In this document: positions 1,318 through 40,434 of the stretch, piece after piece
Layout of the letters: every line of letters starts with the position of its first letter
Position numbering within the stretch: the stretch's first letter is position 1
Assembly (NCBI GenBank): GCA_947585105.1
Contig: CANPWV010000002.1
Coordinates: forward strand, 1,446 to 65,445
Source: an uncultured Clostridia bacterium
GTDB taxonomy: Bacteria > Bacillota > Clostridia > TANB77 > CAG-508
Direction: 5' to 3'
DNA length: 64,000 nucleotides
Notes under the pieces: generated by a model
What the model was told of the DNA's origin: nothing
Seen by the model: the letters and a program-made list of their open reading frames with translations, nothing else
Databases searched by the model: none
Made by a program: the position numbers and the translations under genes

Positions 1318-2109
1318 CTAAGGCTCTTGTTTTATCTTTTTTCCTACAATCGCTAAGCGTCCATCTTTTTGGGAAAATTCGCAAGTTGACAATGTTATCA
1401 AACTATCTCCATATTCTGATGTAACTCCTGTGTCATACAAACTTAAAGCTTTGCAATTTTGAATATATTCGTCAAACTCCTCTTTATTTTCAGAATTTAT
1501 GAAATAGTAGTATCTAAAATTATTTTCCGATTTATAGTAAACTCTTGATAAAAATACACTTATTATTTGGTATTCTGAATCCTCTTCTACCGTCGTAAAT
1601 CTAATTTTCTGATGAGAATTATAATAATTCTGATCCTTGTAATCCATAAGCCCACAAAACATAAGATTTGTTCCTCTGTTGTTGTGACCGTAGATTAGTA
1701 AATTTGTGCTTGGTAGAGCCCAATCATAGTCTTTATCTAAAAAAATTGATCCTTCTTTTGAATATTCTTTTTTGTAATTGTGATTCATATAATAGCTGTT
1801 GTCGCTTGACTGCAAAACCGGATAACTTATCTCACTATTTGGAATTTCAAGCCATCCAACTATGTCGTTATTAATTTTTTTCAATTCTTCAACTTTAATC
1901 ATTCTTTCAGTTTTTTCTGGAAGATTCGGCGCTTCCTCTGTATTTTCAAAGCTTTCCTCTATTACAATTGGTTCTTCAATAAATTCTCTTAATTTCACAT
2001 TTTCCTTGAACGTCTTATTTGTTGAAGAGCTTAAGCAAACCAAAACAAGCGAATTCACCAAAAATAATACTACACATATCGCAAACCCGATTTTCTCGTA
2101 TCTATTCAT
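1318..2109 (-). CDS. srtB: Class B sortase
   Basis: N-terminal membrane anchor, catalytic His context LIYGHNN, TLSTCEF (TLxTC) active-site Cys; directly downstream of a sorting-signal protein. Confidence 0.8.
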   Translation of the reverse strand: MNRYEKIGFAICVVLFLVNSLVLVCLSSSTNKTFKENVKLREFIEEPIVIEESFENTEEAPNLPEKTERMIKVEELKKINNDIVGWLEIPNSEISYPVLQSSDNSYYMNHNYKKEYSKEGSIFLDKDYDWALPSTNLLIYGHNNRGTNLMFCGLMDYKDQNYYNSHQKIRFTTVEEDSEYQIISVFLSRVYYKSENNFRYYYFINSENKEEFDEYIQNCKALSLYDTGVTSEYGDSLITLSTCEFSQKDGRLAIVGKKIKQEP

Positions 2110-14574: not shown

Positions 14575-14650
14575 CGCGGGGTGGAGCAGTTGGCAGCTCG
14601 TTGGGCTCATAACCCAAAGGTCGTAAGTTCGAGTCTTACCTCCGCAACCA
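14575..14650 (+). tRNA. Initiator tRNA-fMet (anticodon CAT)
   Basis: CGCGGGG... acceptor with a C1xA72 mismatch, three consecutive G-C pairs closing the anticodon stem (GGG/CCC), loop CTCATAA, encoded CCA. Confidence 0.9.
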
Positions 14651-14764: not shown

Positions 14765-15598
14765 ATGAATAATATTAATTTAATAAAAAATACTGAAAAT
14801 ACATTTGAAAAAATAAAACACATTGATGAAAATGGAGTAGAATATTGGTACGCCAGAGAACTTATGAAAGTTTTAAATTATAAAGACTGGAGATATTTTG
14901 ATGCAGTAATTAAAAAAGCAAAAATATCATGTAGAACCTCTGGCACTACTGAGCTTGACCATTTTGTTGTCAACAACAAAATGGTTCAAATTGGCTCAAA
15001 CGCCAAAAGGAAACAAAAAGACTATAAATTAACAAGATATGCTTGTTATCTTATAGCTCAAAATGCAAATCCTAAATTAAAAATTGTAGCTTTAGCCCAA
15101 ACATACTTTGCAGTTCAAACTAGAAAACAAGAAATAAGTGAAAAAGATTATAATTCATTAACAGAAGACGAAAAAAGATTTTATCAAAGAGACTTAACTC
15201 GAAAAGGAAATTATTCCCTTAATAAAACCGCAAAAGAGGCCGGTGTAAAAAATTTTGATAAATTTCATAATTCAGGTTATAAAGGTTTATATAATGGAGA
15301 AACAGCTAATGATATTGCAAAAAGAAAAGGATTAAGATATAGAGAAGATATTTTAGATAATATGGGAAGTGATGAGTTAATTGCAAATTTGTTCAGAATT
15401 TCTCAAACAGAGCAAAAGTTAAAAAAAGATAATGTTCAAAATGAAAATGAAGCTAACAAAGCTCATTACAATATCGGGAAAAATATTAGAGAGGTTATTG
15501 AAAAAAATGGTGGAACTATGCCTGAAAACTTGCCAACTCCCAAAAAAAGCATTAAAGAATTAGAAAAAGAAAAAACATTAAATAAAAAACTAACTTAA
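14765..15598 (+). CDS. dinD: DNA damage-inducible protein D
   Basis: Collinear with E. coli DinD as I remember it (..YWYARELMKVLNY.., ..IGSNAKR...L(T/S)RYACYL.., QTYFAVQTR.QE, ..HMGS.EL.ANLFR..QTE.KLK.., GGTMPE.LPTP). Confidence 0.8.
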   Translation: MNNINLIKNTENTFEKIKHIDENGVEYWYARELMKVLNYKDWRYFDAVIKKAKISCRTSGTTELDHFVVNNKMVQIGSNAKRKQKDYKLTRYACYLIAQNANPKLKIVALAQTYFAVQTRKQEISEKDYNSLTEDEKRFYQRDLTRKGNYSLNKTAKEAGVKNFDKFHNSGYKGLYNGETANDIAKRKGLRYREDILDNMGSDELIANLFRISQTEQKLKKDNVQNENEANKAHYNIGKNIREVIEKNGGTMPENLPTPKKSIKELEKEKTLNKKLT

Positions 15599-22742: not shown

Positions 22743-25700
22743 ATGGAAAACAAATTACTTAATTTAACATCACCTCAAAAATCAATTTGGAACACTGAGC
22801 AATTTTACAAAAACACTAATATTAATAATGTTTCAGGAATTTTTGAAACAACTGTCCCTGTTGATTTATCAATTCTTGAAAATTCTATCAAAATTTTCGT
22901 CAAAAATAACGAAAGTTTTAGAATTAGATTAACCTTAGAAAATGGTGATGTAAAGCAATATATTTCTAATTACTCTGATTTTCCAATTAAAACTGTATTT
23001 ATAAAATCAGAAGAAGAAAAAAATTTACTTGAAGAAAAAGAAAATTCAGTTGGCTTTGAGCTTTTAAACTCTAGGCTTTTTAGATTTACCATTTTCCAAT
23101 ATCCTAATGGAAAAGGTGGATATATTGTAAATCAAAGCCATATAATTTCAGACTCTTGGACTTCTGGTATCATGGTAAATGAAATTTGCAAAATATATGA
23201 TTCGCTAAAAAATAAAACTGAAGTTCCTTCTAAAACCCCAGAATTATCTTATTCAAATTATATAAAAACTGAAGAAGAATATATAAATAGCGAAGCTTTC
23301 AAAAAAGATAAAGAATATTGGAATACTATTTTTGAAACAGTTCCAGAAATAGCTTCAATTCCTTCTATCAAAAATGTAAAAGACAACAATATTTCTTATA
23401 ATTCTAAGAGATACTTAACAAATTTAAATCAAGAAACTTTAGAAAAGTTAAAAGATTATTCTTCTAAACACAATATTAGCTTATACAACTTATTTATGGG
23501 AATATTTTCGCTTTATGTTGGTAGAGTTTCAAATCTTAACGAATTTGTAATTGGAACTCCAATATTAAATAGAACAAATTTTAAAGAAAAACAAACAGCT
23601 GGAATGTTTATAAATGTTTCACCTTTAAAAATTAATATTGATCATGACCAAAAGTTTAAAGATTTCGTAACTAAAATTTCAATTGATTTAAAAGGGCTTT
23701 TGCGCCATCAAAGATATTCATATAACTACATTATCGAAGATTTGAGAAAACGTGATTCTTCAATTCCAACTTTATATAATGTCTTATTTTCTTATCAAGT
23801 TACAAAAATGAACGAAACAAACGACATCTTGCCACATAAGACAAGTTGGACTTTTAACAAATCAATTTCAGATGATATTGATTTTCATATTTTTGAATGG
23901 AATGATACAAATACTCTTCAAATTGCTTATGATTATAAGACTGACAAATACTCTGATAATGAGATTTCAGACATAAATGAGCGTATATTACACATTTTAG
24001 ATCAGATTTTAAATAACGAAAATATTTTATTAAGAGAAATAGATGTTATAACAAAAGCCGAAAAAGATAAGATTTTGAATGTTTTTAACGATACAAAAAC
24101 TCCTTACCCTAGTGATAAAACAGTCTCTCAATTATTTGAGGAGCAAGCCAAAAAAACTCCTGATAATACAGCTTTAATCTTTGAAAATCAGAAACTTACT
24201 TATAAAGAGCTAAATGAAAAATCTAATCAATTAGCAAATTTCTTATTAGCTCGTGGAGTAAAACAAGGTGATGTTATCGGAATCTTTATCGACAAAAGTC
24301 TTGAAATGGTTATAGCTATGATGGCTATATTAAAAGCTGACTGTAGCTTTTTACCGTTTGATACAGATTACCCAAAAGAAAGAATTGACTATATTGTAAA
24401 TGATTCAAAAGTAAAATTTATTTTAACTTTTGACCACTTGAAAAAATTTTTACCAAATATATCAATTGATATTTCTTTAAAAAATACTGAGATTTATTCA
24501 GATAAATATAATAGCGAAAATCTAAATTTAAAGACTTATTCAAGTGAAAATATTATATATATAATTTACACCTCAGGCTCTACTGGAAAGCCTAAAGGTG
24601 TTCTTGTAAAACACAAAAATATTTCAAGACTTGTTTTAAATCAAAACTTTATAAAATTTAATCAAAGTGAAACAATGGTACAAACCGGTACCATTGCTTT
24701 TGATGCTTGTATTTTTGAAATATTTGGAAGCCTTCTTCACGGCTTTAAATTACATATTTTGAAAAAAGATATTCTTTTAAATATCAATAACTTTGAGGAA
24801 TTTTTATTAGAAAATAAAATTACAATTTTGTTTTTAACTACAGGTTTATTCAATGAATTAGGAAACTTAAATCCTAATATTTTCAAGAATTTGAGATATT
24901 TGATGACAGGTGGAGATGTAATTTCAATTTCAGCTGTTTCAAATATTTTAAAAGCTTGCCCAAATATAAAACTTGTAAACTGTTATGGACCTACTGAAAA
25001 CGGGTCTTATTCAACAACATTTAATATTCCTTCTAATTGGAAAGAAAATTATATTCCAATTGGAAAACCTATCGCTAATTCTACAGCTTATATTGTTTCT
25101 TCAAGCGGAAACTTACAACCAATTGGAACCCCTGGAGAACTTTGGGTTGGCGGTGATGGAATCGGAAAAGGCTATGTAAATAGAGATGATCTTACAAAAA
25201 AGAATTTTATAAAATCTCCTTTTAATTCTGATTTTATATATAAAACAGGCGATTTAGTAAAATATGATTCTTTCGGGAATATTTGCTTTTTAAGCCGTAT
25301 TGATAATCAAGTTAAGTTAAGAGGTTTCAGAATTGAACTTGGAGAAATTGATTCAACAATTTTGAAATTTAAAGATATAAAAGAAAGTCTTACAATTATC
25401 AAAAAATCTGAAAATAACTCTTCTATTTTCTCTTATATCACATCAGATAAAAATATTAATATAGAAGAACTAAAAGTATATCTATCTCAAAATTTGCCTA
25501 AATATATGATTCCAACTGAAATAATTCAAATACCAGTTTTCCCATTAAATATAAATGGAAAAATTGATAGAAATTCATTACCAGTTCCGAATTTGAAAAA
25601 TAATAAAAAGGCTCTAAAACCTAGAAATAATACTGATAAAGAGCTTATTAATATTTTATCAGAAGTCTTAAATATAGAAAATTCTATGATAAATATTGAC

Positions 25701-30131: not shown

Positions 30132-31963
30132 TGACTGGTCTAGGGAGATATCAGACAGTTTACACAGGTATATTAATAATATTAACCTTTGTTCTTGTTA
30201 TATTTTTAAATTATTTGCTAAGTAAAAAAAATAAGAAGCAACTAGAAAAAGTATTTATTGTTCTATTTTCTTTACTTATTCTTTCTATCGTTCCTACGAT
30301 ACTACAAATGTTTTTTGCAAATAAAATAGACAATGAACAAGACTTAATATATTTTGATTATGTTTCATACATAGGAGTTTGTTATGTACCTGTTTGTTTT
30401 ACATATTTATCATTAATATTTGCTAAAACAAAAATAAACTTTACTAAAAAATTAAAATCACTTCTTATACTCCCTACAATATCAATTTTGGTATTATGGA
30501 CAAACAACTTACACCACTTGTTTTATCAAAGTTATTCAATTAACTTATCTGATATAAAACTTGGAAGTTACTTTTACATACATTATATATACACAATGGT
30601 ATTGTTTGCAATTTCACTTGTAATGCTCATTAAATACTCAATCAAAAATTCAGGTTTCTTCTCAAAGCAAGCAATACTTATCTTCATAGGTGTCGCAACA
30701 CCTATTGTAACCAATATTTTAGCTTACGCTGGAATAATACCTGGATTAAATGTAACATCAATTTCACTTGGAGTAACTGTTATATTGCTTACAATTGCTA
30801 TGTTAAAATTTGATTTATTTAAACTTACTCCAATTGCCTTACAATCAATCGTAGACAGAATTTCAGATAGTTATGTTGTTTTAAACGACAACTATGAAAT
30901 TACAGATTATAACTTAACTTTTACAAGAACATTTAAAGTTAAAAATGTATCAAACCTTCGTGGAAAACATTTTGCTAAATTTCTAGATGAAATTGGCTTA
31001 AAAGATAAAATTAAAGAATTTGCTAAATATATTGAAAAAATCGATAATAATAAGAAAAAAACTGTTAATTTTGAGATAAATATTGAAAAACTTAATAAAT
31101 ATTTCAATGTTGAAATTACATCAATTATTATAAATGGTCAGTTTCTAGGAATTTTGGTTCTTTTCAAAGATATTACTCAACATATAAACGATATGAGAAG
31201 TATTAAAAATAACCAAGAATTGCTTATCGAACAAGAACGTCTTGCCTCTTTAGGACAAATGATAGGTGGTATTGCTCATAACCTAAAAACGCCTATATTC
31301 TCTGTTGCTGGTGGCTTAGAGGGATTATCTGATTTGATAAAAGAATATGACGAATCAATTGATGATCCAAACGTAAACAATCAAGATATGCACGATATTG
31401 CTAAAGATATGAATGACTGGATTTATAAATTAAAAGACCATATTACATATATGAGCGATGTTATAACAACTGTTAAAGGTCAAGCTGTAAATATGTCTGA
31501 AGCTCAAAAAATAGATTTTCCTATTTCAGAGCTATTCCAACATGTAAACATCTTAATGCAACATATACTTAAAGAAAAGCTTGCTACTCTCGAAGTACAT
31601 AACGATATTCCTGATAGTATAACGATTTATGGAAATATAAATTCTTTGGTTCAAGTAATAAATAACTTGATTTCAAACGCAATTGAAGCTTATGGCGACA
31701 ATCCTGAGAAAAAAGTTGTACTATCTTCAAAAAAAGAAGGAAAAAATATTATAATTTCAGTAAAAGACTTTGGCCCAGGGCTTCCTAAAGAAGTTCAAGA
31801 CAAGCTTTTTAAAGAAATGATTACAACAAAAGGAAAAAACGGAACTGGTCTTGGATTATTTATGTCTTACTCAAATATTAAAGCTCATTTCAATGGAACT
31901 ATTAAATTTGAGACAGTTCCAAATGAAGGAACAAGATTTGATATTATAATTCCAAATAAATAA
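30131..31963 (+). CDS. Sensor histidine kinase with an N-terminal 7TM domain, PAS-like linker, HisKA and HATPase (paralog 1)
   Basis: Seven hydrophobic helices in the first ~230 aa; H-box ERLASLGQMIGGIAHNLKTPI; N/G boxes NLISNAIEA, DFGPGL, GTGLGL. ATG overlaps the NRPS TAA (TAATG). Confidence 0.85.
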   Translation: MTGLGRYQTVYTGILIILTFVLVIFLNYLLSKKNKKQLEKVFIVLFSLLILSIVPTILQMFFANKIDNEQDLIYFDYVSYIGVCYVPVCFTYLSLIFAKTKINFTKKLKSLLILPTISILVLWTNNLHHLFYQSYSINLSDIKLGSYFYIHYIYTMVLFAISLVMLIKYSIKNSGFFSKQAILIFIGVATPIVTNILAYAGIIPGLNVTSISLGVTVILLTIAMLKFDLFKLTPIALQSIVDRISDSYVVLNDNYEITDYNLTFTRTFKVKNVSNLRGKHFAKFLDEIGLKDKIKEFAKYIEKIDNNKKKTVNFEINIEKLNKYFNVEITSIIINGQFLGILVLFKDITQHINDMRSIKNNQELLIEQERLASLGQMIGGIAHNLKTPIFSVAGGLEGLSDLIKEYDESIDDPNVNNQDMHDIAKDMNDWIYKLKDHITYMSDVITTVKGQAVNMSEAQKIDFPISELFQHVNILMQHILKEKLATLEVHNDIPDSITIYGNINSLVQVINNLISNAIEAYGDNPEKKVVLSSKKEGKNIIISVKDFGPGLPKEVQDKLFKEMITTKGKNGTGLGLFMSYSNIKAHFNGTIKFETVPNEGTRFDIIIPNK

Positions 31964-31988
31964 TACAAATGAAAAAGGGGAGAAAAAA

Positions 31989-33806
31989 ATGAACACATTA
32001 TTTTATTCATTTACAATTGGAAGTCTACTTGCAGTAGTACTAATATTTCTATTTTACTTTCTATTAAAAGTAAAAATCACACAATTACAACAAATTTTTA
32101 GTGTAAACATGATTTTACTAATAACAACTTGTGTATTCATCTTTTTACAAATGCAACTTTCAAACGTTCTTAATATAAAACCTATCTATTTTGCTTATTT
32201 TTACTATATAGGAATTGTATTCTTCCCGATATCTCTATATTTTACAGTAAAAATATTTGTTCACACAAAAATTACTTTTAAAACGAGATATTTACTTTTA
32301 TTTATAATTCCTCTATTATCACTTCTAGCTTTATGGACAAACGAAAAATATCATTTATTCTTTGGAAATTATGATATTTCTTTAAATAATTGCAAATTTG
32401 GTCCTATGTTTATTATTAATGAAATTTATTCTTATTTCTTATACTTCCTATCAGTAGTTTCATTATTAAAATTCTTTAATAAAAATTCAGGACTATATTC
32501 ACAACAATTAAGCTTGTTTTTAGTTGGAATTATATTTCCATTTGTTTTAAATTTACTTGGAACTTTAAAAATAATTGATGTAACTATATATATCACTCCA
32601 ATTAGCTCAGTTGTATCAGTAATTTGCTTTACACTAGCTTTATTCAAATTCCAAATTCTAGATACTGTTCCAATTGCTCTTACTAAAGTAGTTGACAGGA
32701 TGAGCGATGGATACCTGGTTTTAAATGAAAAAAATATAATAACAGATTATAATATTACTTTTTTAAAAATATTTGAATTAGAAGATACTTCTATAAATTC
32801 TACTCACATATTTGACTTATTAAAATTAGAAAACTTTAAGCCATTAGAAGAAAAAACTATTATAAATGGCTTAAAAGCTGTTAGAGAATCAAACGAAACT
32901 TTAGTAATTGAAAAAGAATTTAAAAATTTAAAGAAATTCTTAAGATTAGAATTAAGCAACTTAAAATCTGAAAATGTTTTTATTGGTTCTTTGATATTAG
33001 TCAAAGACTTTACAGAACATCACAGAGATGTTGAAATTATAAAATCAAATACAAATATGCTTATTGAAAAAGAACGTTTAGCTTCACTTGGAGAAATGAT
33101 AAGTGGTGTTACACATAACTTAAAAACACCTATATTCTCTATTGCTGGCGCTAACGAAGGAATGGCTGATTTAATTAACGAATACGCCCAATCAATTGAT
33201 GATCCAACAGTTACAAAAGAAGATCATAAAGATATTGCTAAAGACATGTTAGACTGGAATGAAAAAATTAAAGAGTACACATCTTATATGTCTGATATAA
33301 TTACAGCAATTCGTGGACAAGCTGCTTCATTTACAGAAAACACTTATGAAACCTTTACAATAGATGAATTAATGAAAAGGGTTAATATCTTAATGAAACA
33401 CGAATTACAACAAGCTCTGGTTACTTTAAATGTTTCTTATAATTTAAGTAAAGAAATAAATTTACACGGAAATATTAATAGTTTAATACAAATTATTAAT
33501 AACTTAATTTCAAACGCTATTCAAAGTTATCAAGGAACACCAAATCAAAATGTATACTTAAATTTAGAAAATACAGATACAAAATTAATCATTACTATTG
33601 AAGATCATGGAATGGGAATTCCACCTGAAATTAAAGATAAATTATTCAAAGAAATAATAACTTCAAAAGGAAAAGAAGGAACTGGCCTTGGCCTATTTAT
33701 CTCATATTCAAACTTGAAAACACAATTTAATGGAGACTTAACATTTGAATCAGAAGTTGGAAAAGGAACAACTTTTAAAATAACTCTTCCAATTTCTTCA
33801 ATTTAA
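31989..33806 (+). CDS. Sensor histidine kinase, 7TM-PAS-HisKA-HATPase (paralog 2)
   Basis: Same architecture as the previous gene; kinase core nearly collinear (ERLASLGEMISGVTHNLKTPI..., NLISNAIQS, DHGMGI, GTGLGL). Confidence 0.85.
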   Translation: MNTLFYSFTIGSLLAVVLIFLFYFLLKVKITQLQQIFSVNMILLITTCVFIFLQMQLSNVLNIKPIYFAYFYYIGIVFFPISLYFTVKIFVHTKITFKTRYLLLFIIPLLSLLALWTNEKYHLFFGNYDISLNNCKFGPMFIINEIYSYFLYFLSVVSLLKFFNKNSGLYSQQLSLFLVGIIFPFVLNLLGTLKIIDVTIYITPISSVVSVICFTLALFKFQILDTVPIALTKVVDRMSDGYLVLNEKNIITDYNITFLKIFELEDTSINSTHIFDLLKLENFKPLEEKTIINGLKAVRESNETLVIEKEFKNLKKFLRLELSNLKSENVFIGSLILVKDFTEHHRDVEIIKSNTNMLIEKERLASLGEMISGVTHNLKTPIFSIAGANEGMADLINEYAQSIDDPTVTKEDHKDIAKDMLDWNEKIKEYTSYMSDIITAIRGQAASFTENTYETFTIDELMKRVNILMKHELQQALVTLNVSYNLSKEINLHGNINSLIQIINNLISNAIQSYQGTPNQNVYLNLENTDTKLIITIEDHGMGIPPEIKDKLFKEIITSKGKEGTGLGLFISYSNLKTQFNGDLTFESEVGKGTTFKITLPISSI

Positions 33807-33845
33807 GTATATAATAGATTAAGATTAAAGGAGGTACTAATAAAT

Positions 33846-34901
33846 ATGCGCCATTCTGAACAAAATGTAGAAAAACAACCTTATAAAATCATTGCAGTTG
33901 ATGATGAAAGTGGAATTATTGATTCATTATCAGTATTTTTAAAACGTTCTGGTTATCAATTAGTTGGTATTACAAATCCACTAGAAGCTATTGAACGTGT
34001 AAAAAATGAACACTTTGATTTAATGCTTTTGGACTTCATTATGACACCTATTCATGGTGATAAGGTTGTTGAAGAAATTAGAAAGTTTGATAAAGATTTA
34101 TATATTTTATTGCTTACTGGTCATAAAGACTTGGCTCCACCATTAGAGACAATTAGAAAATTATCAATTCAAGGTTATTGTGAAAAAAGTGATAAATTTG
34201 ATCAATTATTGCTTTTAATAGAGTCTGCAATTAAATCAATTGAACAAATGAGAATTATAAGTAAAATAAATTCTGAATTATCTCAGTCAAGAGAAGAATT
34301 AGAAAAAGCTTATTTAGAGACAATTCAAACTTTAAGATATACTGTTGAAGCTAAAGATCAATATACAAGAGGTCACTCTGATAGAGTTTCAGCGTTCTCT
34401 GTTTTAATTGGAAAATATATGGGACTTTCAGAAGAAGATTTAAAAACTCTTGAAATAGGTGGTTTATTCCATGATATTGGAAAAATTGGAGTTCCTGACA
34501 GTGTTCTTCTAAAAGAAGGAAAACTTACTGATGATGAATATAGTGAAATTAAAAATCACCCATCAATTGGTAAACACATTCTTTCAAATGCTTCAACTTT
34601 TGAGAATATAATTCCAATTGTATATCATCATCATGAAAAATTTGATGGACATGGATATCCAGGAAAACTTAAAGGAGAAGAAATTCCTTTATTTGCTAGA
34701 ATTGCGGCTGTAGCTGATACTTTTGACGCTATGACTACAAAAAGATCTTATAGAAACGCTCTTCCTCTAGATGTTGTTAGAGCTGAAATAGTTAGAGTTT
34801 CAGGAACACAATTTGATCCTAAGATTGCCGATGTATTCTTAGATATATTAGATAACCATTACGATGAAATCCTTGCTATACAAGAAAAATACGCAAGTTA
34901 A
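33846..34901 (+). CDS. RpfG-type response regulator: REC plus HD-GYP (c-di-GMP phosphodiesterase family)
   Basis: REC (IIAVDDE.., LMLLDFIM), then GLFHDIGKIGVPD and HHHEKFDGHGYPGKLKGEEIP (HD...GYP). Confidence 0.9.
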   Translation: MRHSEQNVEKQPYKIIAVDDESGIIDSLSVFLKRSGYQLVGITNPLEAIERVKNEHFDLMLLDFIMTPIHGDKVVEEIRKFDKDLYILLLTGHKDLAPPLETIRKLSIQGYCEKSDKFDQLLLLIESAIKSIEQMRIISKINSELSQSREELEKAYLETIQTLRYTVEAKDQYTRGHSDRVSAFSVLIGKYMGLSEEDLKTLEIGGLFHDIGKIGVPDSVLLKEGKLTDDEYSEIKNHPSIGKHILSNASTFENIIPIVYHHHEKFDGHGYPGKLKGEEIPLFARIAAVADTFDAMTTKRSYRNALPLDVVRAEIVRVSGTQFDPKIADVFLDILDNHYDEILAIQEKYAS

Positions 34902-34912
34902 GGGGGAAAAAA

Positions 34913-35722
34913 ATGAAAATAACTGAAGTTAAAAATACGGCGAGAGTTAAACTTTCAGGAAAATGTATAAAGTGTTGCTCTTCTAGTCTTTTATACTTTA
35001 TAATAATTGCTTTAATAACTTATTTTCAGACCTTAGCTACAAATAAAATAGAAAATTCAATTGTTCTAGCTATTGTTCAAGCTATTTTACTACTTATTAA
35101 TTGGGTTTTCGGATATGGAATTGTAGCAAATATCTTGGATTTAACAAACGATAAAACATCATCAATTACAGATTTTATAAATAGTACAATTAAAAATTCT
35201 GTAAAATATACAAAAATTGGGTTAAGAGTTTTATTAAAGATTTTAATTCCTTTATTAATTTTCTTGTTTACAGCTTTTTATTGGGTAGGAACTCAGATTG
35301 CTAGAATAAATAAAATAAACTTTCTTTGCTTTAATCAAAATTTGACTATATTAGCTAGTTTCGTTTGGGCTTTAAGTGGAATATTACTTTTATATTATAT
35401 TTTAAAATATACTTTAATTGCTTATATTTACTATGAGAATCCAAATTTATCTGAAAAGGAAATTGCTGATCAATCAAATAATTTAATGAAAAAAAATATA
35501 GGAAAATTCATTTTATTATTACTATCTTTCTTACATTGGTTCTTACTTGCAGCAATAATATTATTAATACTAAATTTATTCATAGAAATTCAGTATTTAA
35601 CACCTTTTGCAGTCTTATTTTATAGTATATTAAGACCATACTTCGTAGTATCAAAATCAGAATTTTACAATGAATTAAATGATGTAAAAATAGAAGAAAT
35701 AAAAAAAGATGACTCAAAATAA
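34913..35722 (+). CDS. DUF975-like polytopic membrane protein
   Basis: 269 aa; N-terminus ..VKNTARVKLSGKC.. followed by multiple TM helices, typical of DUF975. Confidence 0.5.
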   Translation: MKITEVKNTARVKLSGKCIKCCSSSLLYFIIIALITYFQTLATNKIENSIVLAIVQAILLLINWVFGYGIVANILDLTNDKTSSITDFINSTIKNSVKYTKIGLRVLLKILIPLLIFLFTAFYWVGTQIARINKINFLCFNQNLTILASFVWALSGILLLYYILKYTLIAYIYYENPNLSEKEIADQSNNLMKKNIGKFILLLLSFLHWFLLAAIILLILNLFIEIQYLTPFAVLFYSILRPYFVVSKSEFYNELNDVKIEEIKKDDSK

Positions 35723-35748
35723 GAGTCATTTTTTTCGCTTAAATATAC

Positions 35749-37439: not shown

Positions 37440-38423
37440 TTATGTGTCAGCATATATTGCTGCTTTCTTATCTTTTAATGTGAATTTTATTCCAGTTTTA
37501 TCTGTTACTAATAAAACTATTTTCTTAGCAAATTCTTTGTCATAATTTAATTCATTTTCAAAATTTACAACTATTTTATCAGTTCCTGTTATAGTTACTT
37601 TTATTTTTTTGTTTTCTTGCTCCATAAGTAACATTATTGTTTCTAGCATCAAGAAAATTATTGTTTCTGTATTTTTTCTAACTATTGTTGATGGACTTTC
37701 AGCGTTTATAACTAGTTCAGTTATATTTTCTTTAATCTTACTAGCAAGTAAAGTTCTAGTAACATCTATAATATCTTCGATTCTTAAAAATTTATTTCCT
37801 TCAAATCCTAGAGCTGAGAAAACTTTTCCAACTTTATTATTTGCTTCATCAATAACTTTGTTTTCATCTTCATAATCTTTTGTGTTCATAGCAATTGACT
37901 TGTTTGCAGCACTTATAGAAAATAACTGATCTTTGGCTTCATTTATCAATCCAACTGATAATTCACCAATTAATTGCTTTTTATAATTTAATGAAGCAAG
38001 TTTAATTTCTTGAACTCTATTTAATTTGATAAGTCTCATTGTCTTTATTGCTGATAATGTTAATAATAGAAGCTCGTCTACACCTTTTGTCTTGTCGTGG
38101 TAACCTTGAATATCAAGGAAAGTTAAAGTCTCAATAGGTGGCTTTTTCTCTGAAAAACCAGTTTGTAAAATTACTAAAGCTTTGTTGTTAAAAGTTCTAA
38201 GTTGCTTTACAAACTCTTCTCCTGTAAGCTCTGGCATAAAATAATCTAGTAGTACAATATCAATATTCTCATCTTTGCAAATTTTTAATGCTTCCACTGG
38301 ATTTGTACAAGCTGATATATTTAAACCATTTTCCTCCAAATACATTTTTGTAACTTTTACGTAATTTTCATCATCGTCAACTAACAATATTTTGGTTTGT
38401 TTTACTCCCTCAACATTAACCAT
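37440..38423 (-). CDS. REC domain protein with a C-terminal degenerate kinase-like (pseudo-HisKA/HATPase) region
   Basis: REC (ILLVDDDE.., VLLDYFMPELTG). The C-terminal half has an H-box-like SVGLINEAKDQL with Asn where His is expected. No recognisable DNA-binding domain. Confidence 0.6.
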   Translation of the reverse strand: MVNVEGVKQTKILLVDDDENYVKVTKMYLEENGLNISACTNPVEALKICKDENIDIVLLDYFMPELTGEEFVKQLRTFNNKALVILQTGFSEKKPPIETLTFLDIQGYHDKTKGVDELLLLTLSAIKTMRLIKLNRVQEIKLASLNYKKQLIGELSVGLINEAKDQLFSISAANKSIAMNTKDYEDENKVIDEANNKVGKVFSALGFEGNKFLRIEDIIDVTRTLLASKIKENITELVINAESPSTIVRKNTETIIFLMLETIMLLMEQENKKIKVTITGTDKIVVNFENELNYDKEFAKKIVLLVTDKTGIKFTLKDKKAAIYADT

Positions 38424-40434
38424 TTCCTTGTTCCTCCTTCATTGGTATTTCAATTATAAATTTAGTTCCAATGCCTTTTTTAACTTCGAACCAAATATTT
38501 CCTTGGTAAATTCCTTTTATAACAGAGCCAGCTAGATACATACCAAGTCCTGTACCTTTAGCTCCTTTTGTTGTCATTATGTTTTTAAATAAGTACTTTT
38601 GTACCTTCTCAGGAATTCCTCCTGCTTCGTCCTCTACCTCAATTCTACAAGTATTTGAACCTTTCTTAAACGCTGTTAACTTAACATTTCCTTTCTTTCC
38701 AATTCCACCATAGGCCTGAATCGCGTTAACAACAATGTTTGTAAGAACCTGTCCAAGTTTTGTTCTCTCTCCGTAGATTTCAATTTCTTCTTTAACTTCA
38801 CTTTCAAATGTACAACCATTTTTCTTTTGCTCGTTTTGAGTAAGAACATGTAAGTCATCAACCATTTTATTTAGGCTAAATACTTCTTTATCATTACTTC
38901 CTAAGTTTCTAATTTGATTTCTCATACTTGTAACAATGTTTATAATTCTGTCAGACGAAATTTGCATATTTTCAAGAAGCTCTTTTTCTTTGTCAGATGT
39001 GCAATATTTGTCAAGCATTAAAATTGAAGTATTAATTGATGAAATCGGTGTATTAATATCATGAGCCATACCACCAGCAAGCTCACCTAAAACTGACAAT
39101 TGCTCTTGTTTAAACATTATATCTCTTTGAATTAAAAGCTTGTCCTGGATTTTATTATAGTAATATGAAATATTTCCAATCTCATCGTTTGAAAGTATCG
39201 GCATAAAGTTTTTCTTCAAGATATCTTTATCAGATAAGATGTCTTGCATATTTTTCTCAACATTCTTGATATTCATACTACTGTTTTTAGACCAATATAC
39301 TAAAATTACAGCATAAATAAGAAGCATAGCAACACTTACATAAACTAAGAATTCAAATGTTTCTATATTTCCAGCAAAATATTTTGCTCCTATAAAATAA
39401 GTTCTTCCAAATTCATCTTTAACAGCTCTTATATAAGCGTGTTCATCAATTCCATAAGATTCATATATTACATTATCTTCTTGAGTAAGATTAATACCAG
39501 TTTTTCCATTATCATCTGTATAATAATAGAAATATTTGTCTTTATATTTTACCATGAAATCACTTAAGTCTTTAGTTCCTGTAGTAACCATATTTCCTTC
39601 ATAATCCATAGCAAACAATATGTTTTCATCTTCCCATAATGGAACTTCTAGCTTAACTGTCTGTAACATATCTTTTATATCAAGTTTTGATTTATCAAAT
39701 TCTAAATCATCCATATATGTTCTGTAATAAGTTGAAATAGCTTTTGAAGAAACATCTATTGTGTTTGAATATGAAAAACATATAAATATGATTAAAATAG
39801 CTATTACTAATGGTAAAATTTGAATAAGAAGTGAAACAGAATTACTTATTGTAGTATTATTTTTCTTATAAAATCTGTTATTTTCGTAACTTTCTTTTAA
39901 AACAGTATTTAAATATTTTTGTAAGAAGAAAAATTTAAATACACTCAAAATTAGCCAAGCAGCTATAATTAATAATCCTAGTCTTATAAGTGATATTAAC
40001 ATTTTGTCAAAATCTTGAATACTTAATTTTCCAACAGTTAGGAAAAACGCAACAGCAATTATAGTTACAAAAGCTATAATTACTACTTGTATAATCATAA
40101 ACTTATATGGGTAATTCATACAATTATCACGAACATTTATTATAAATTTTTTGTCTTTTTCAGGATTACCATGATTTATAAGTTTGTCTATTTTTTTCAT
40201 TGAGATTTTATCGATTAATATTTCTAAAGTATATACTATTAGACCAAATATTATGAAATAAACAAATAATGGTATTTTTATTGTTTCAATTTGAAAAGAA
40301 ATATTATCAAAATATTTTGGAAAATTTAACAGCTGTGGCAACAGTAAGTAAAATATTGTTATTATTACAATTGTTGACAATAAAACCATTAAATTATATT
40401 CTTTTCTACTTTTCTTTAGTTTCTTATTATCCAT
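38416..40434 (-). CDS. Multi-TM sensor histidine kinase with an extracytoplasmic domain
   Basis: 672 aa; several TM helices flank a ~130 aa loop; H-box LSVLGELAGGMAHDINTPI; NIVVNAIQA, GTGLGM. Its stop overlaps the start of the REC gene. Confidence 0.85.
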   Translation of the reverse strand: MDNKKLKKSRKEYNLMVLLSTIVIITIFYLLLPQLLNFPKYFDNISFQIETIKIPLFVYFIIFGLIVYTLEILIDKISMKKIDKLINHGNPEKDKKFIINVRDNCMNYPYKFMIIQVVIIAFVTIIAVAFFLTVGKLSIQDFDKMLISLIRLGLLIIAAWLILSVFKFFFLQKYLNTVLKESYENNRFYKKNNTTISNSVSLLIQILPLVIAILIIFICFSYSNTIDVSSKAISTYYRTYMDDLEFDKSKLDIKDMLQTVKLEVPLWEDENILFAMDYEGNMVTTGTKDLSDFMVKYKDKYFYYYTDDNGKTGINLTQEDNVIYESYGIDEHAYIRAVKDEFGRTYFIGAKYFAGNIETFEFLVYVSVAMLLIYAVILVYWSKNSSMNIKNVEKNMQDILSDKDILKKNFMPILSNDEIGNISYYYNKIQDKLLIQRDIMFKQEQLSVLGELAGGMAHDINTPISSINTSILMLDKYCTSDKEKELLENMQISSDRIINIVTSMRNQIRNLGSNDKEVFSLNKMVDDLHVLTQNEQKKNGCTFESEVKEEIEIYGERTKLGQVLTNIVVNAIQAYGGIGKKGNVKLTAFKKGSNTCRIEVEDEAGGIPEKVQKYLFKNIMTTKGAKGTGLGMYLAGSVIKGIYQGNIWFEVKKGIGTKFIIEIPMKEEQGNG

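Follow-up and report, generated by a model that had tools for sequence, protein, structure and literature searches.

Does a nonribosomal peptide synthetase (NRPS) that shares an operon with a membrane-bound histidine kinase make the very signal that the kinase perceives? This question is raised by a locus in a 64,000-nucleotide (nt) stretch of DNA from an uncultured Clostridia bacterium (assembly GCA_947585105.1, contig CANPWV010000002.1, positions 1,446 to 65,445), here called the window (G+C ~26%). In this locus an NRPS gene is followed on the same strand by genes for two seven-transmembrane (7TM) histidine kinases, HK1 and HK2, for a response regulator with a receiver (REC) and an HD-GYP domain, and for a DUF975 integral membrane protein (Table 1).

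The five-gene operon is most likely a self-signalling circuit, a reading that we favour without holding it firmly. Its best-founded part is the link between the NRPS product as signal and HK1 as receptor, which we consider quite probable, and the full circuit including a cyclic-dinucleotide output is held with slightly less assurance, at a little better than even. In the proposed sequence of events, the dimodular NRPS, with its starter-type condensation (C) domain and terminal reductase (R), would release an N-acylated dipeptide aldehyde, as its architecture suggests. Comparative genomics suggests that HK1, whose gene appears translationally coupled to that of the NRPS, would recognise this aldehyde or a direct derivative through its 7TM(-PAS) sensor. 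HK1 would then set the phosphorylation of the REC-HD-GYP regulator and so alter the hydrolysis of a cyclic dinucleotide, by homology cyclic di-GMP (c-di-GMP) or 3'3'-cyclic GMP-AMP (3'3'-cGAMP), and HK2 probably feeds a second, invariant cue to the same regulator. Across the clade, the specificity parts of the NRPS and the HK1 sensor are exchanged together, as allelic cassettes on backbones that are otherwise identical, so that strains and species would use different private signal-receptor pairs (pherotypes).

Conservation of the synthetase-kinase linkage

The loci of relatives, labelled L001, L003 and so on (with WIN for the window itself), were taken from GTDB species representatives and from metagenomes. 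They derive exclusively from metagenome-assembled genomes of uncultured gut Clostridia in human, rabbit, mouse and ruminant hosts, including Clostridium sp. CAG:273, CAG:389 and CAG:780 and Candidatus Scatovivens. A relative of the kinase is encoded in at least 576 GTDB species representatives. The nearest kinase relatives in the collections searched are only 78-80% identical, and the window's own species is therefore absent from these collections.

The preliminary description of this DNA had named a survey of gene order as a check on its reading, and the outcome was strongly positive. The NRPS gene lies directly upstream of the kinase gene in 79/79 GTDB loci with upstream DNA, 70 of them with a gap of at most 30 nt or an overlap, and in 54 of the 57 metagenome loci (49 with a gap of at most 30 nt). 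A REC-HD-GYP gene follows downstream on the same strand in 65 of 78 loci and within 600 nt in 49, and DUF975 is present in 18 of 78 reference loci. In some loci the regulator is displaced by 1-8 kb, with a minus-strand gene for a TraG/VirD4-type coupling protein, a transposase or Fic genes in between; these mobile-element inserts are secondary disruptions. Unlike this kinase-regulator link, the link between NRPS and kinase was never found broken by mobile elements.

The NRPS-kinase link was also kept where the synthetase itself has changed. It persists with three-module NRPSs (L005, L006 and L024), with a one-module enzyme of condensation, adenylation (A), thiolation (T) and reductase domains (C-A-T-R; the L131 group), and in the more distant L159 with C-A-T-TE, where a thioesterase (TE) stands at the end and the stop and start codons are still adjacent. 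In L006 and L159 it is kept despite other flanking genes. L160, the most distant relative examined (40% identity in the kinase core), carries a HisKA_7TM kinase and a REC-DUF3369-HD-GYP regulator without an NRPS. The two-component pair therefore also occurs without the synthetase, and it looks older than the NRPS link, to judge from this distribution.

Two side observations concern these same loci. TraG/VirD4 homologues lie between kinase and regulator in L022, L025 and L069, other loci having a YhgA-like transposase or Fic there, and a gene for a TraG/VirD4-type type IV coupling protein is also present elsewhere in the window (Table 1); this recurrence points to a probable mobile-element insertion site beside the operon. 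The regulators of L159 and L160 are longer (about 500 aa), with DUF3369 between REC and HD-GYP, and in L159 a GHKL (HATPase_c_5) gene overlaps the start of the C-A-T-TE NRPS gene; the longer regulators and the GHKL gene are found at L159:3676-5007, L159:10840-12348 and L160:10899-12413.

Paired alleles of A domains and HK1 sensors

The A-domain specificity codes of the NRPSs are hypervariable, with 54 distinct pairs among 65 two-module loci and 96 code strings among 136 loci, and eight codes occur at either module position. The kinase is a mosaic, having mean pairwise distances of 0.54 in the 7TM part, 0.55 in PAS and 0.33 in the catalytic core. Pairs of kinases with cores at least 80% identical were compared as a set (core identity 84-89%). 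Their 7TM identity was 86% where both codes match (n = 13), 55% where only A1 differs (n = 13), 54% where only A2 differs (n = 8) and 47% where both differ (n = 38). At cores of at least 95% identity, the 7TM identity was always 84-100% in the 11 clusters with the same codes, and on the 5 backbones with different codes (12 alleles) it was 40-72%.

The five backbones are L112/L114/L115 (core 100%, three code pairs, 7TM 50-54%), L122/L123 (core 100%, two code pairs, 7TM 40%), L025/L064/L116 (core 98-99%, three code pairs, 7TM 51-65%), L019-type versus L030-type (core 95-96%, two code pairs, 7TM 53%) and L008/L018 (core 96%, two code pairs, 7TM 72%). In the first four of these, discrete alleles replace the signal-specifying and the sensor sequence together. 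It was noted that the L019-type was encountered in 7 and the L030-type in 4 independent samples, each allele unchanged. A search with the L025 kinase core alone had returned mostly truncated fragments (best 88% identity), and the alleles came instead from the metagenome scan.

Nucleotide profiles were used to locate the ends of the exchanged tracts. Over the upstream region and C1, and again from the kinase core through the regulator and DUF975 to some 6 kb beyond, L114 and L115 show 99-100% identity, which falls to 46-57% in A1 and 51-76% across C2-A2-T2-R-7TM-PAS. The high identity resumes at kinase residue ~316 by the nucleotide profile and at 342 by protein alignment, and L112/L115, L122/L123 and L025/L064 gave similar profiles. 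The downstream breakpoints map to HK1-equivalent residues 224, 233, 294, 342, 342, 342 and 346; all seven thus lie after TM7 and up to the junction of PAS with the dimerisation and histidine phosphotransfer (DHp) domain, and none inside the 7TM part. L008 and L018 diverge in two patches, A1 (45-63% nt identity) and 7TM (68-75%), with ~4.5 kb of 85-97% identical DNA between them, in which the R domain is 95% identical at the protein level. Because the two patches lie around so similar an R domain, they are not one linkage block. An island at the T1/C2 boundary is 90-98% identical between alleles (4976-5276 in L114/L115 and 4463-5363 in L122/L123), so that A1 and C2-A2-T2-R-7TM were replaced as two separate units, and this island may serve as a favoured joint for recombination when A domains are swapped.

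In the window's own subclade the co-variation was found in only one of the two kinases. Between the window and L003, the identities of 7TM, PAS and core are 51, 56 and 81% for HK1 and 81, 80 and 85% for HK2; between the window and L001, which has the same codes, those of HK1 are 78, 76 and 80%. With cores at ~80% throughout this subclade, the 7TM identity is 78% for the same codes, 67% where A1 is different, and 51% and 45% where both are different. The HK2 sensor is conserved across species irrespective of the NRPS codes. The preliminary description had both kinases as candidate sensors of the NRPS product: for HK1 the matched allelic replacement provides strong comparative support, whereas for HK2, with a sensor unmatched to the codes, there is no such support. 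HK1 and HK2 are old paralogues that behave differently, the sensor co-varying with the NRPS only in HK1.

A partial Mantel test associated the 7TM part with the A2 code (r 0.41, p <= 0.0005), and the association of core with code was not significant. This signal was dropped as proof, its direct term being lost once the R and T2 domains were added, and we therefore relied on the comparisons of alleles on the same backbone and on the breakpoint positions.

The pattern is like that of agr, ComQXP and ComCD, in which a hypervariable region for the signal and the sensor half lies between the conserved catalytic half of the kinase and the flanks, and in which pherotypes occur as several discrete alleles on near-identical backbones. 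By analogy, this supports a self-signal sensed by HK1. Unlike in agr and ComQXP, the putative signal is non-ribosomal, its specificity resides in A domains, and neither a pre-peptide gene nor a processing enzyme akin to AgrB or ComQ is present in the operon. The kinase is of the HisKA family, unlike AgrC (HPK10 family), and the regulator is an HD-GYP enzyme rather than a LytTR or other DNA-binding protein.

Product, receptor and output of the proposed circuit

The NRPS has two sets of Condensation, AMP-binding and PP-binding domains followed by NAD_binding_4 (Pfam), which gives C1-A1-T1-C2-A2-T2-R, and catalytic motifs are intact in the NRPS, both kinases and the regulator. Its best NCBIfam match is AusA (NF047350), at 1706.9 bits and below the equivalog cutoff of 2500, over aa 377-2459, the A-T-C-A-T-R part; the window NRPS is by this measure a relative of AusA and not an orthologue. 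Like AusA and the NRPSs of gut Clostridia, it combines an A-T-C-A-T-R core with reductive release in a gut or commensal Firmicutes setting. Unlike AusA (1707 vs 2500 bits), it has an extra N-terminal C domain of starter type, C1, whose xHxxxD[AS] motif is conserved in relatives; N-acylation of the first residue is inferred from it, and the product is probably an N-acylated dipeptide aldehyde, as predicted from architecture.

AusA-type reductive release yields dipeptide aldehydes, which cyclise to pyrazinones. Since an N-acylated dipeptide aldehyde cannot cyclise, the pyrazinone-type product suggested in the preliminary description is doubtful, and the extra C domain favours the N-acyl aldehyde. 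The known products of the AusA and gut NRPS class are dipeptide aldehydes and N-acyl variants of them (PMC8210680, PMC12327764), and in gut clusters an N-acyl tail reportedly keeps the aldehyde form stable (PMC8210680). Signalling by aureusimines through a two-component system had once been claimed, and the claim was withdrawn as confounded, a second mutation being present (PMC8210680). The hand-derived Stachelhaus codes gave no confident match to a known substrate code, and the two amino acids are left unnamed. Among the ~27 window ORFs scanned with Pfam, we saw no gene for a phosphopantetheinyl transferase, acyl supply or an exporter.

Both kinases contain HisKA_7TM (PF16927; 119.9 and 104.4 bits against a cutoff of 28.6, HK1 E 1.9e-34), HisKA and HATPase_c, with PAS_9 in HK1 and undetected by Pfam in HK2. 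The H-boxes read AHNLKTPI in HK1 and THNLKTPI in HK2, and the N, G1 and G2 boxes are present in both. Within HK1, variability among relatives is concentrated in TM1-TM2 and the middle of PAS, and the motifs WTNxxHHLFY (123-132) and KNSGFFSKQA (172-181) of the sensor are conserved. An AlphaFold2 model of residues 1-238 (predicted local distance difference test score 88, predicted template modelling score 0.85) shows seven helices and a short beta-hairpin loop. The HK1 7TM part has no sequence relatives in the PDB, and homology with G-protein-coupled receptors is not claimed, as Foldseek matches were weak and of a generic 7-helix kind (best E 2.5e-3, TM-score 0.5-0.64).

The preliminary description had taken the kinases for paralogues with near-identical catalytic cores; paralogous they are, and their DHp and catalytic (CA) domains are just 54% identical, with 38% in the 7TM part and 31% in PAS. 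The H-box and the residues after it are almost identical (THNLKTPIFSIAG in HK1, AHNLKTPIFSVAG in HK2), which would fit two kinases that act on one and the same regulator. From this and from the conserved HK2 sensor, it is probable that HK2 brings an invariant cue into that regulator. A second kinase is restricted to the window's subclade and a few others in the locus survey.

The regulator comprises Response_reg and HD_5/HD domains (HD_5 E 2e-38). Its relatives in the PDB are 5z7c, V-cGAP3 (2.4e-46), 4mcw, PmGH (2.4e-40), and 4r8z, PA4781, and alignment to 5z7c and 4mcw shows every metal ligand and the GYP motif retained. HD, HHE and GYP are kept in 53/53 regulator orthologues. A Tyr sits at the position of PmGH Glu185, as in V-cGAP3, which, set against the PmGH structure, suggests a two-metal site. 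Homology would make either c-di-GMP or 3'3'-cGAMP the substrate. Regulator divergence tracks the kinase core (r 0.74) and not the 7TM part (r 0.27).

Several known systems share parts of this layout. As in the Xanthomonas rpf/DSF (diffusible signal factor) system, a synthase, a polytopic membrane kinase and a REC-HD-GYP protein are clustered, and the predicted output is cyclic-dinucleotide hydrolysis, not DNA binding. The rpf-like logic of the preliminary description holds for this layout and fails for an RpfF-type synthase and an RpfC-type hybrid kinase: RpfF is of the crotonase family, and unlike RpfC (HisKA-HATPase-REC-HPt), HK1 and HK2 have neither REC nor histidine phosphotransfer (HPt) domains, so no phosphorelay, and their sensor is HisKA_7TM. 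The host is also a Gram-positive Clostridia member, and the signal-receptor cassettes are polymorphic, which to our knowledge is not a feature of rpf. In Vibrio CqsA/CqsS and Legionella LqsA/LqsS, the synthase gene likewise adjoins that of its multi-pass membrane kinase. Unlike the NRPS here, CqsA and LqsA are acyl transferases dependent on pyridoxal phosphate, and CqsS and LqsS are hybrid kinases with phosphorelays to transcription factors; we know of no comparable allelic cassette polymorphism in either.

Guo et al. 2017 reportedly described the dipeptide-aldehyde NRPS family of gut Clostridia, and Schneider & Balskus 2018 reportedly ruminopeptin. Unlike the gut dipeptide-aldehyde NRPSs as described, the present one is coupled physically and evolutionarily to a 7TM kinase and an HD-GYP regulator. 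The preliminary description did not recognise a described locus of this kind, and the full-text literature bears it out: we found no paper joining an NRPS, a HisKA_7TM kinase and an HD-GYP regulator, and no description of pherotype-like NRPS/sensor cassettes, within a coverage to which the cluster maps of Guo et al. 2017 and Schneider & Balskus 2018 do not belong. Those maps may already depict kinases beside gut dipeptide-aldehyde NRPSs. HisKA_7TM itself is mentioned in the full-text literature searched only in two surveys of archaeal two-component systems. Communication by a signal synthase and sensor kinase with specificity alleles is already known; the combination of NRPS, HisKA_7TM and HD-GYP was not found described.

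A number of results weigh against a self-signalling circuit. In the outgroup L160 kinase and regulator occur together with no NRPS, so the kinase family can sense something else. When R-domain divergence was added to a regression on distance matrices, the term linking 7TM to the A2 code vanished (beta 0.04, p 0.33), and the data-set-wide co-variation is therefore statistically inseparable from physical linkage. The ratio of nonsynonymous to synonymous substitution (dN/dS) by region never exceeded 1, with dS near saturation, and positive selection was not demonstrated. L027 and L044 differ in the A1 code yet keep 85% 7TM identity, and the allele polymorphism was seen in relatives and not at the window's exact locus, its own species being missing from the collections. 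As to the output, the best solved relative of the regulator, V-cGAP3, is a 3'3'-cGAMP phosphodiesterase, PmGH and PA4781 being c-di-GMP HD-GYP enzymes. Neither the window nor 2.7 Mb of related loci yielded a GG[DE]EF protein, in a sample that is biased and covers the same neighbourhood repeatedly, and an Rfam scan of the window returned no riboswitch, c-di-GMP classes included, with only two tRNAs and a borderline small RNA (sRNA) match.

Some of these results are what would be expected if the NRPS diversifies for an outward role, such as inhibiting proteases of hosts or competitors, and carries along the adjoining 5' half of a kinase gene whose product senses an unrelated cue. The absorption of the 7TM-code correlation by R-domain divergence, the mostly contiguous variable tracts from A2 to 7TM and the low dN/dS all fit such hitchhiking, as do the protease-inhibitor roles published for this NRPS class (PMC8210680, PMC12327764). 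We consider it improbable, since carried-along tracts would not account for seven of seven breakpoints falling between the end of TM7 and DHp with none in the 7TM part or at the NRPS/kinase junction, or for the A1 and 7TM patches of L008/L018 on either side of a near-identical R domain. It also leaves unexplained the adjacency in nearly all loci of both collections, the translational coupling and the persistence of the link through changes of NRPS size and release domain. In loci with two kinases the sensor varies with the NRPS in HK1 only, and in the window's subclade the 7TM identity falls stepwise with the code differences at a constant core identity. Alternatively, HK1 could detect a metabolite made by its own cell, such as a reactive aldehyde at the membrane, for self-protection, export or feedback and with no density function; specificity alleles would then arise from the need of the sensor to fit the product. 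The same co-variation of code and sensor fits this, the output of the regulator is enzymatic rather than transcriptional, the operon holds a DUF975 membrane protein, and the neighbour is often an HtrA-like protease; peptide aldehydes are known inhibitors of both serine and cysteine proteases. The upkeep of several discrete alleles on identical backbones is typical of agr, ComQXP and ComCD and less expected of simple feedback, and we regard such purely private sensing as unlikely, if slightly less so than hitchhiking, although sequence alone cannot separate it from cell-to-cell communication. That the genes have no functional link at all, with synteny inherited in one clade beside an ordinary environmental two-component system, appears very improbable. 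The HtrA, Tex and ABC-F flanks are likewise syntenic in many relatives and L160 lacks the NRPS, but the linkage is kept where flanks differ (L006, L159), mobile elements broke the kinase-regulator and never the NRPS-kinase adjacency, start and stop codons overlap, and the matched allelic replacement takes in the sensor.

The signalling circuit that we favour would matter because there has been over a decade of debate on what the reductase-terminated NRPSs of commensal and gut Firmicutes, those for aureusimines and dipeptide aldehydes, natively do. For such a product the locus supplies a candidate receptor, genetically hard-wired and conserved in hundreds of uncultured gut species. It is possible, at slightly less than even chances in our estimation, that the loci constitute a widespread unrecognised quorum-sensing-like family of at least 576 species-level genomes of uncultured gut Clostridia, with an NRPS as autoinducer synthase, a signal encoded by exchangeable A domains, a 7TM kinase with the shape of a G-protein-coupled receptor as the matched receptor, and many pherotypes. 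If so, bacterial communication would be known to include NRPS-encoded, pherotype-diversified signalling, the HisKA_7TM sensors, so far uncharacterised as a family, would gain a ligand class, and A-domain swapping would diversify a signal rather than an antibiotic. This branch of dipeptide-aldehyde NRPSs would then natively serve self-recognition signalling through a cyclic dinucleotide and not, or not only, the inhibition of host proteases. Natural allele sets such as L112/L114/L115 put the specificity within reach of assays on recombinant kinases and synthetic compounds, with no need to grow the organisms.

Operon layout and neighbouring genes

ORF calling confirmed the four genes from NRPS to regulator where the preliminary description had placed them, together with the TAATG overlap at 30129-30133 (NRPS stop TAA 30129-30131, HK1 ATG 30131-30133) and the gaps of 25 nt between HK1 and HK2 and 39 nt between HK2 and the regulator, each with a Shine-Dalgarno sequence. 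As it had also noted, no convincing plus-strand terminator was found between these genes. The clustered unit therefore stands and the count of four does not: the DUF975 gene starts 11 nt past the regulator and a hairpin with a T-run follows at its end, so the transcription unit consists of five genes. Other hairpins with a T-run lie at the place of this terminator in L001, L011 and L088.

The promoter of the preliminary description (22678-22706) is present in the sequence. Generic promoter-like matches are not enriched in the window (120 vs 112 in shuffles), and the scan alone is uninformative in such AT-rich DNA. The promoter lies inside a block that is conserved in the window, L001, L003, L011 and mostly in L089, with diverging intergenic DNA around it. 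An imperfect inverted repeat, TCAA-N6-TTGA, in GTCAAAATGTATTGATTTTT (22667-22686) overlaps the -35 hexamer and may be an operator. It was noted that the kinases of the five relatives sharing GTCAAAATGTATTGATTTTT are only ~50-80% identical.

Table 1. Positions of genes, domains and signals in the window (nt; aa numbering is within the named protein)
Feature	Position	Strand	Details
tRNA-Met	14575-14650		
BRO-N domain gene	14765-15598		
HtrA-like serine protease (Trypsin_2 + PDZ)	21496-22638	-	Pfam, NCBIfam; divergent across shared 104-nt intergenic region
Promoter block GTCAAAATGTATTGATTTTT...TATATAAT	22667-22706	+	Consensus scan; conserved in relatives
-35 hexamer TTGATT	22678-22683	+	Consensus scan; spacer 17
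-10 hexamer TATAAT	22701-22706	+	Consensus scan
NRPS	22743-30131	+	2462 aa; ORF + Pfam
NRPS C1	aa 1-440		Motif SHIISDS
NRPS A1	about aa 465-960		Code DAFFMGCSYK
NRPS C2	aa 1050-1486		Motif HHIISDG
NRPS A2	about aa 1500-1960		Code DMFLLGSSAK (hidden Markov model alignment); manual reading: V at position 278
NRPS T-domain serines	aa 993-996 and 2013-2016		GGDS
NRPS R	aa 2093-2345		GATGFLG, YTRSK
HK1	30131-31963	+	610 aa; ORF + Pfam
HK1 7TM sensor	aa 1-226; nt 30131-30808		
HK1 PAS	about aa 236-350		
HK1 DHp/CA	aa 365-610		H383 in AHNLKTPI
HK2	31989-33806	+	605 aa; ORF + Pfam
REC-HD-GYP response regulator	33846-34901	+	351 aa; ORF + Pfam
Regulator REC			DD19-20, D62, T91, K113
Regulator HD-GYP			HD 209-210, HHHE 260-263, GYP 270-272
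DUF975 integral membrane protein, fifth gene	34913-35722	+	269 aa; Pfam DUF975 8.9e-10
Probable intrinsic terminator	35709-35736	+	ATGACTC-aaaataa-GAGTCAT then T7; read directly
REC protein of second two-component pair	37440-38423	-	327 aa; C-terminal output ~200 aa without family assignment
HisKA/HATPase_c kinase of second pair	38416-40434	-	672 aa
ORF after second pair	40447-41763		No Pfam match
ORF after second pair	42121-43542		No Pfam match
Rfam RF03531 match	44153-44253	-	'C. difficile sRNA included into helicase gene'; 65.7 vs gathering 65.2 bits
TraG/VirD4-type type IV coupling protein	51556-53136	-	

The HtrA-like protease gene that diverges from the operon has the same divergent placement, at no more than 1.2 kb, in 40 of the 61 loci that could be evaluated, and it is still near in the rearranged L006, L035, L078 and L086. 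It was not adopted as a component of the system, being adjacent in only these 40/61 loci and outside the variable cassette; a functional link between the protease and a peptide aldehyde is conceivable.

Downstream, the window contains an unrelated second two-component pair, and the block with this pair occupies the position that Tex usually has in most relatives, between ABC-F and UvrD. The RF03531 match lies inside the UvrD-like helicase ORF and probably reflects conserved coding sequence. Upstream of the operon, the BRO-N domain gene directly after tRNA-Met suggests a possible remnant of a prophage or integrative element at the tRNA-Met site.

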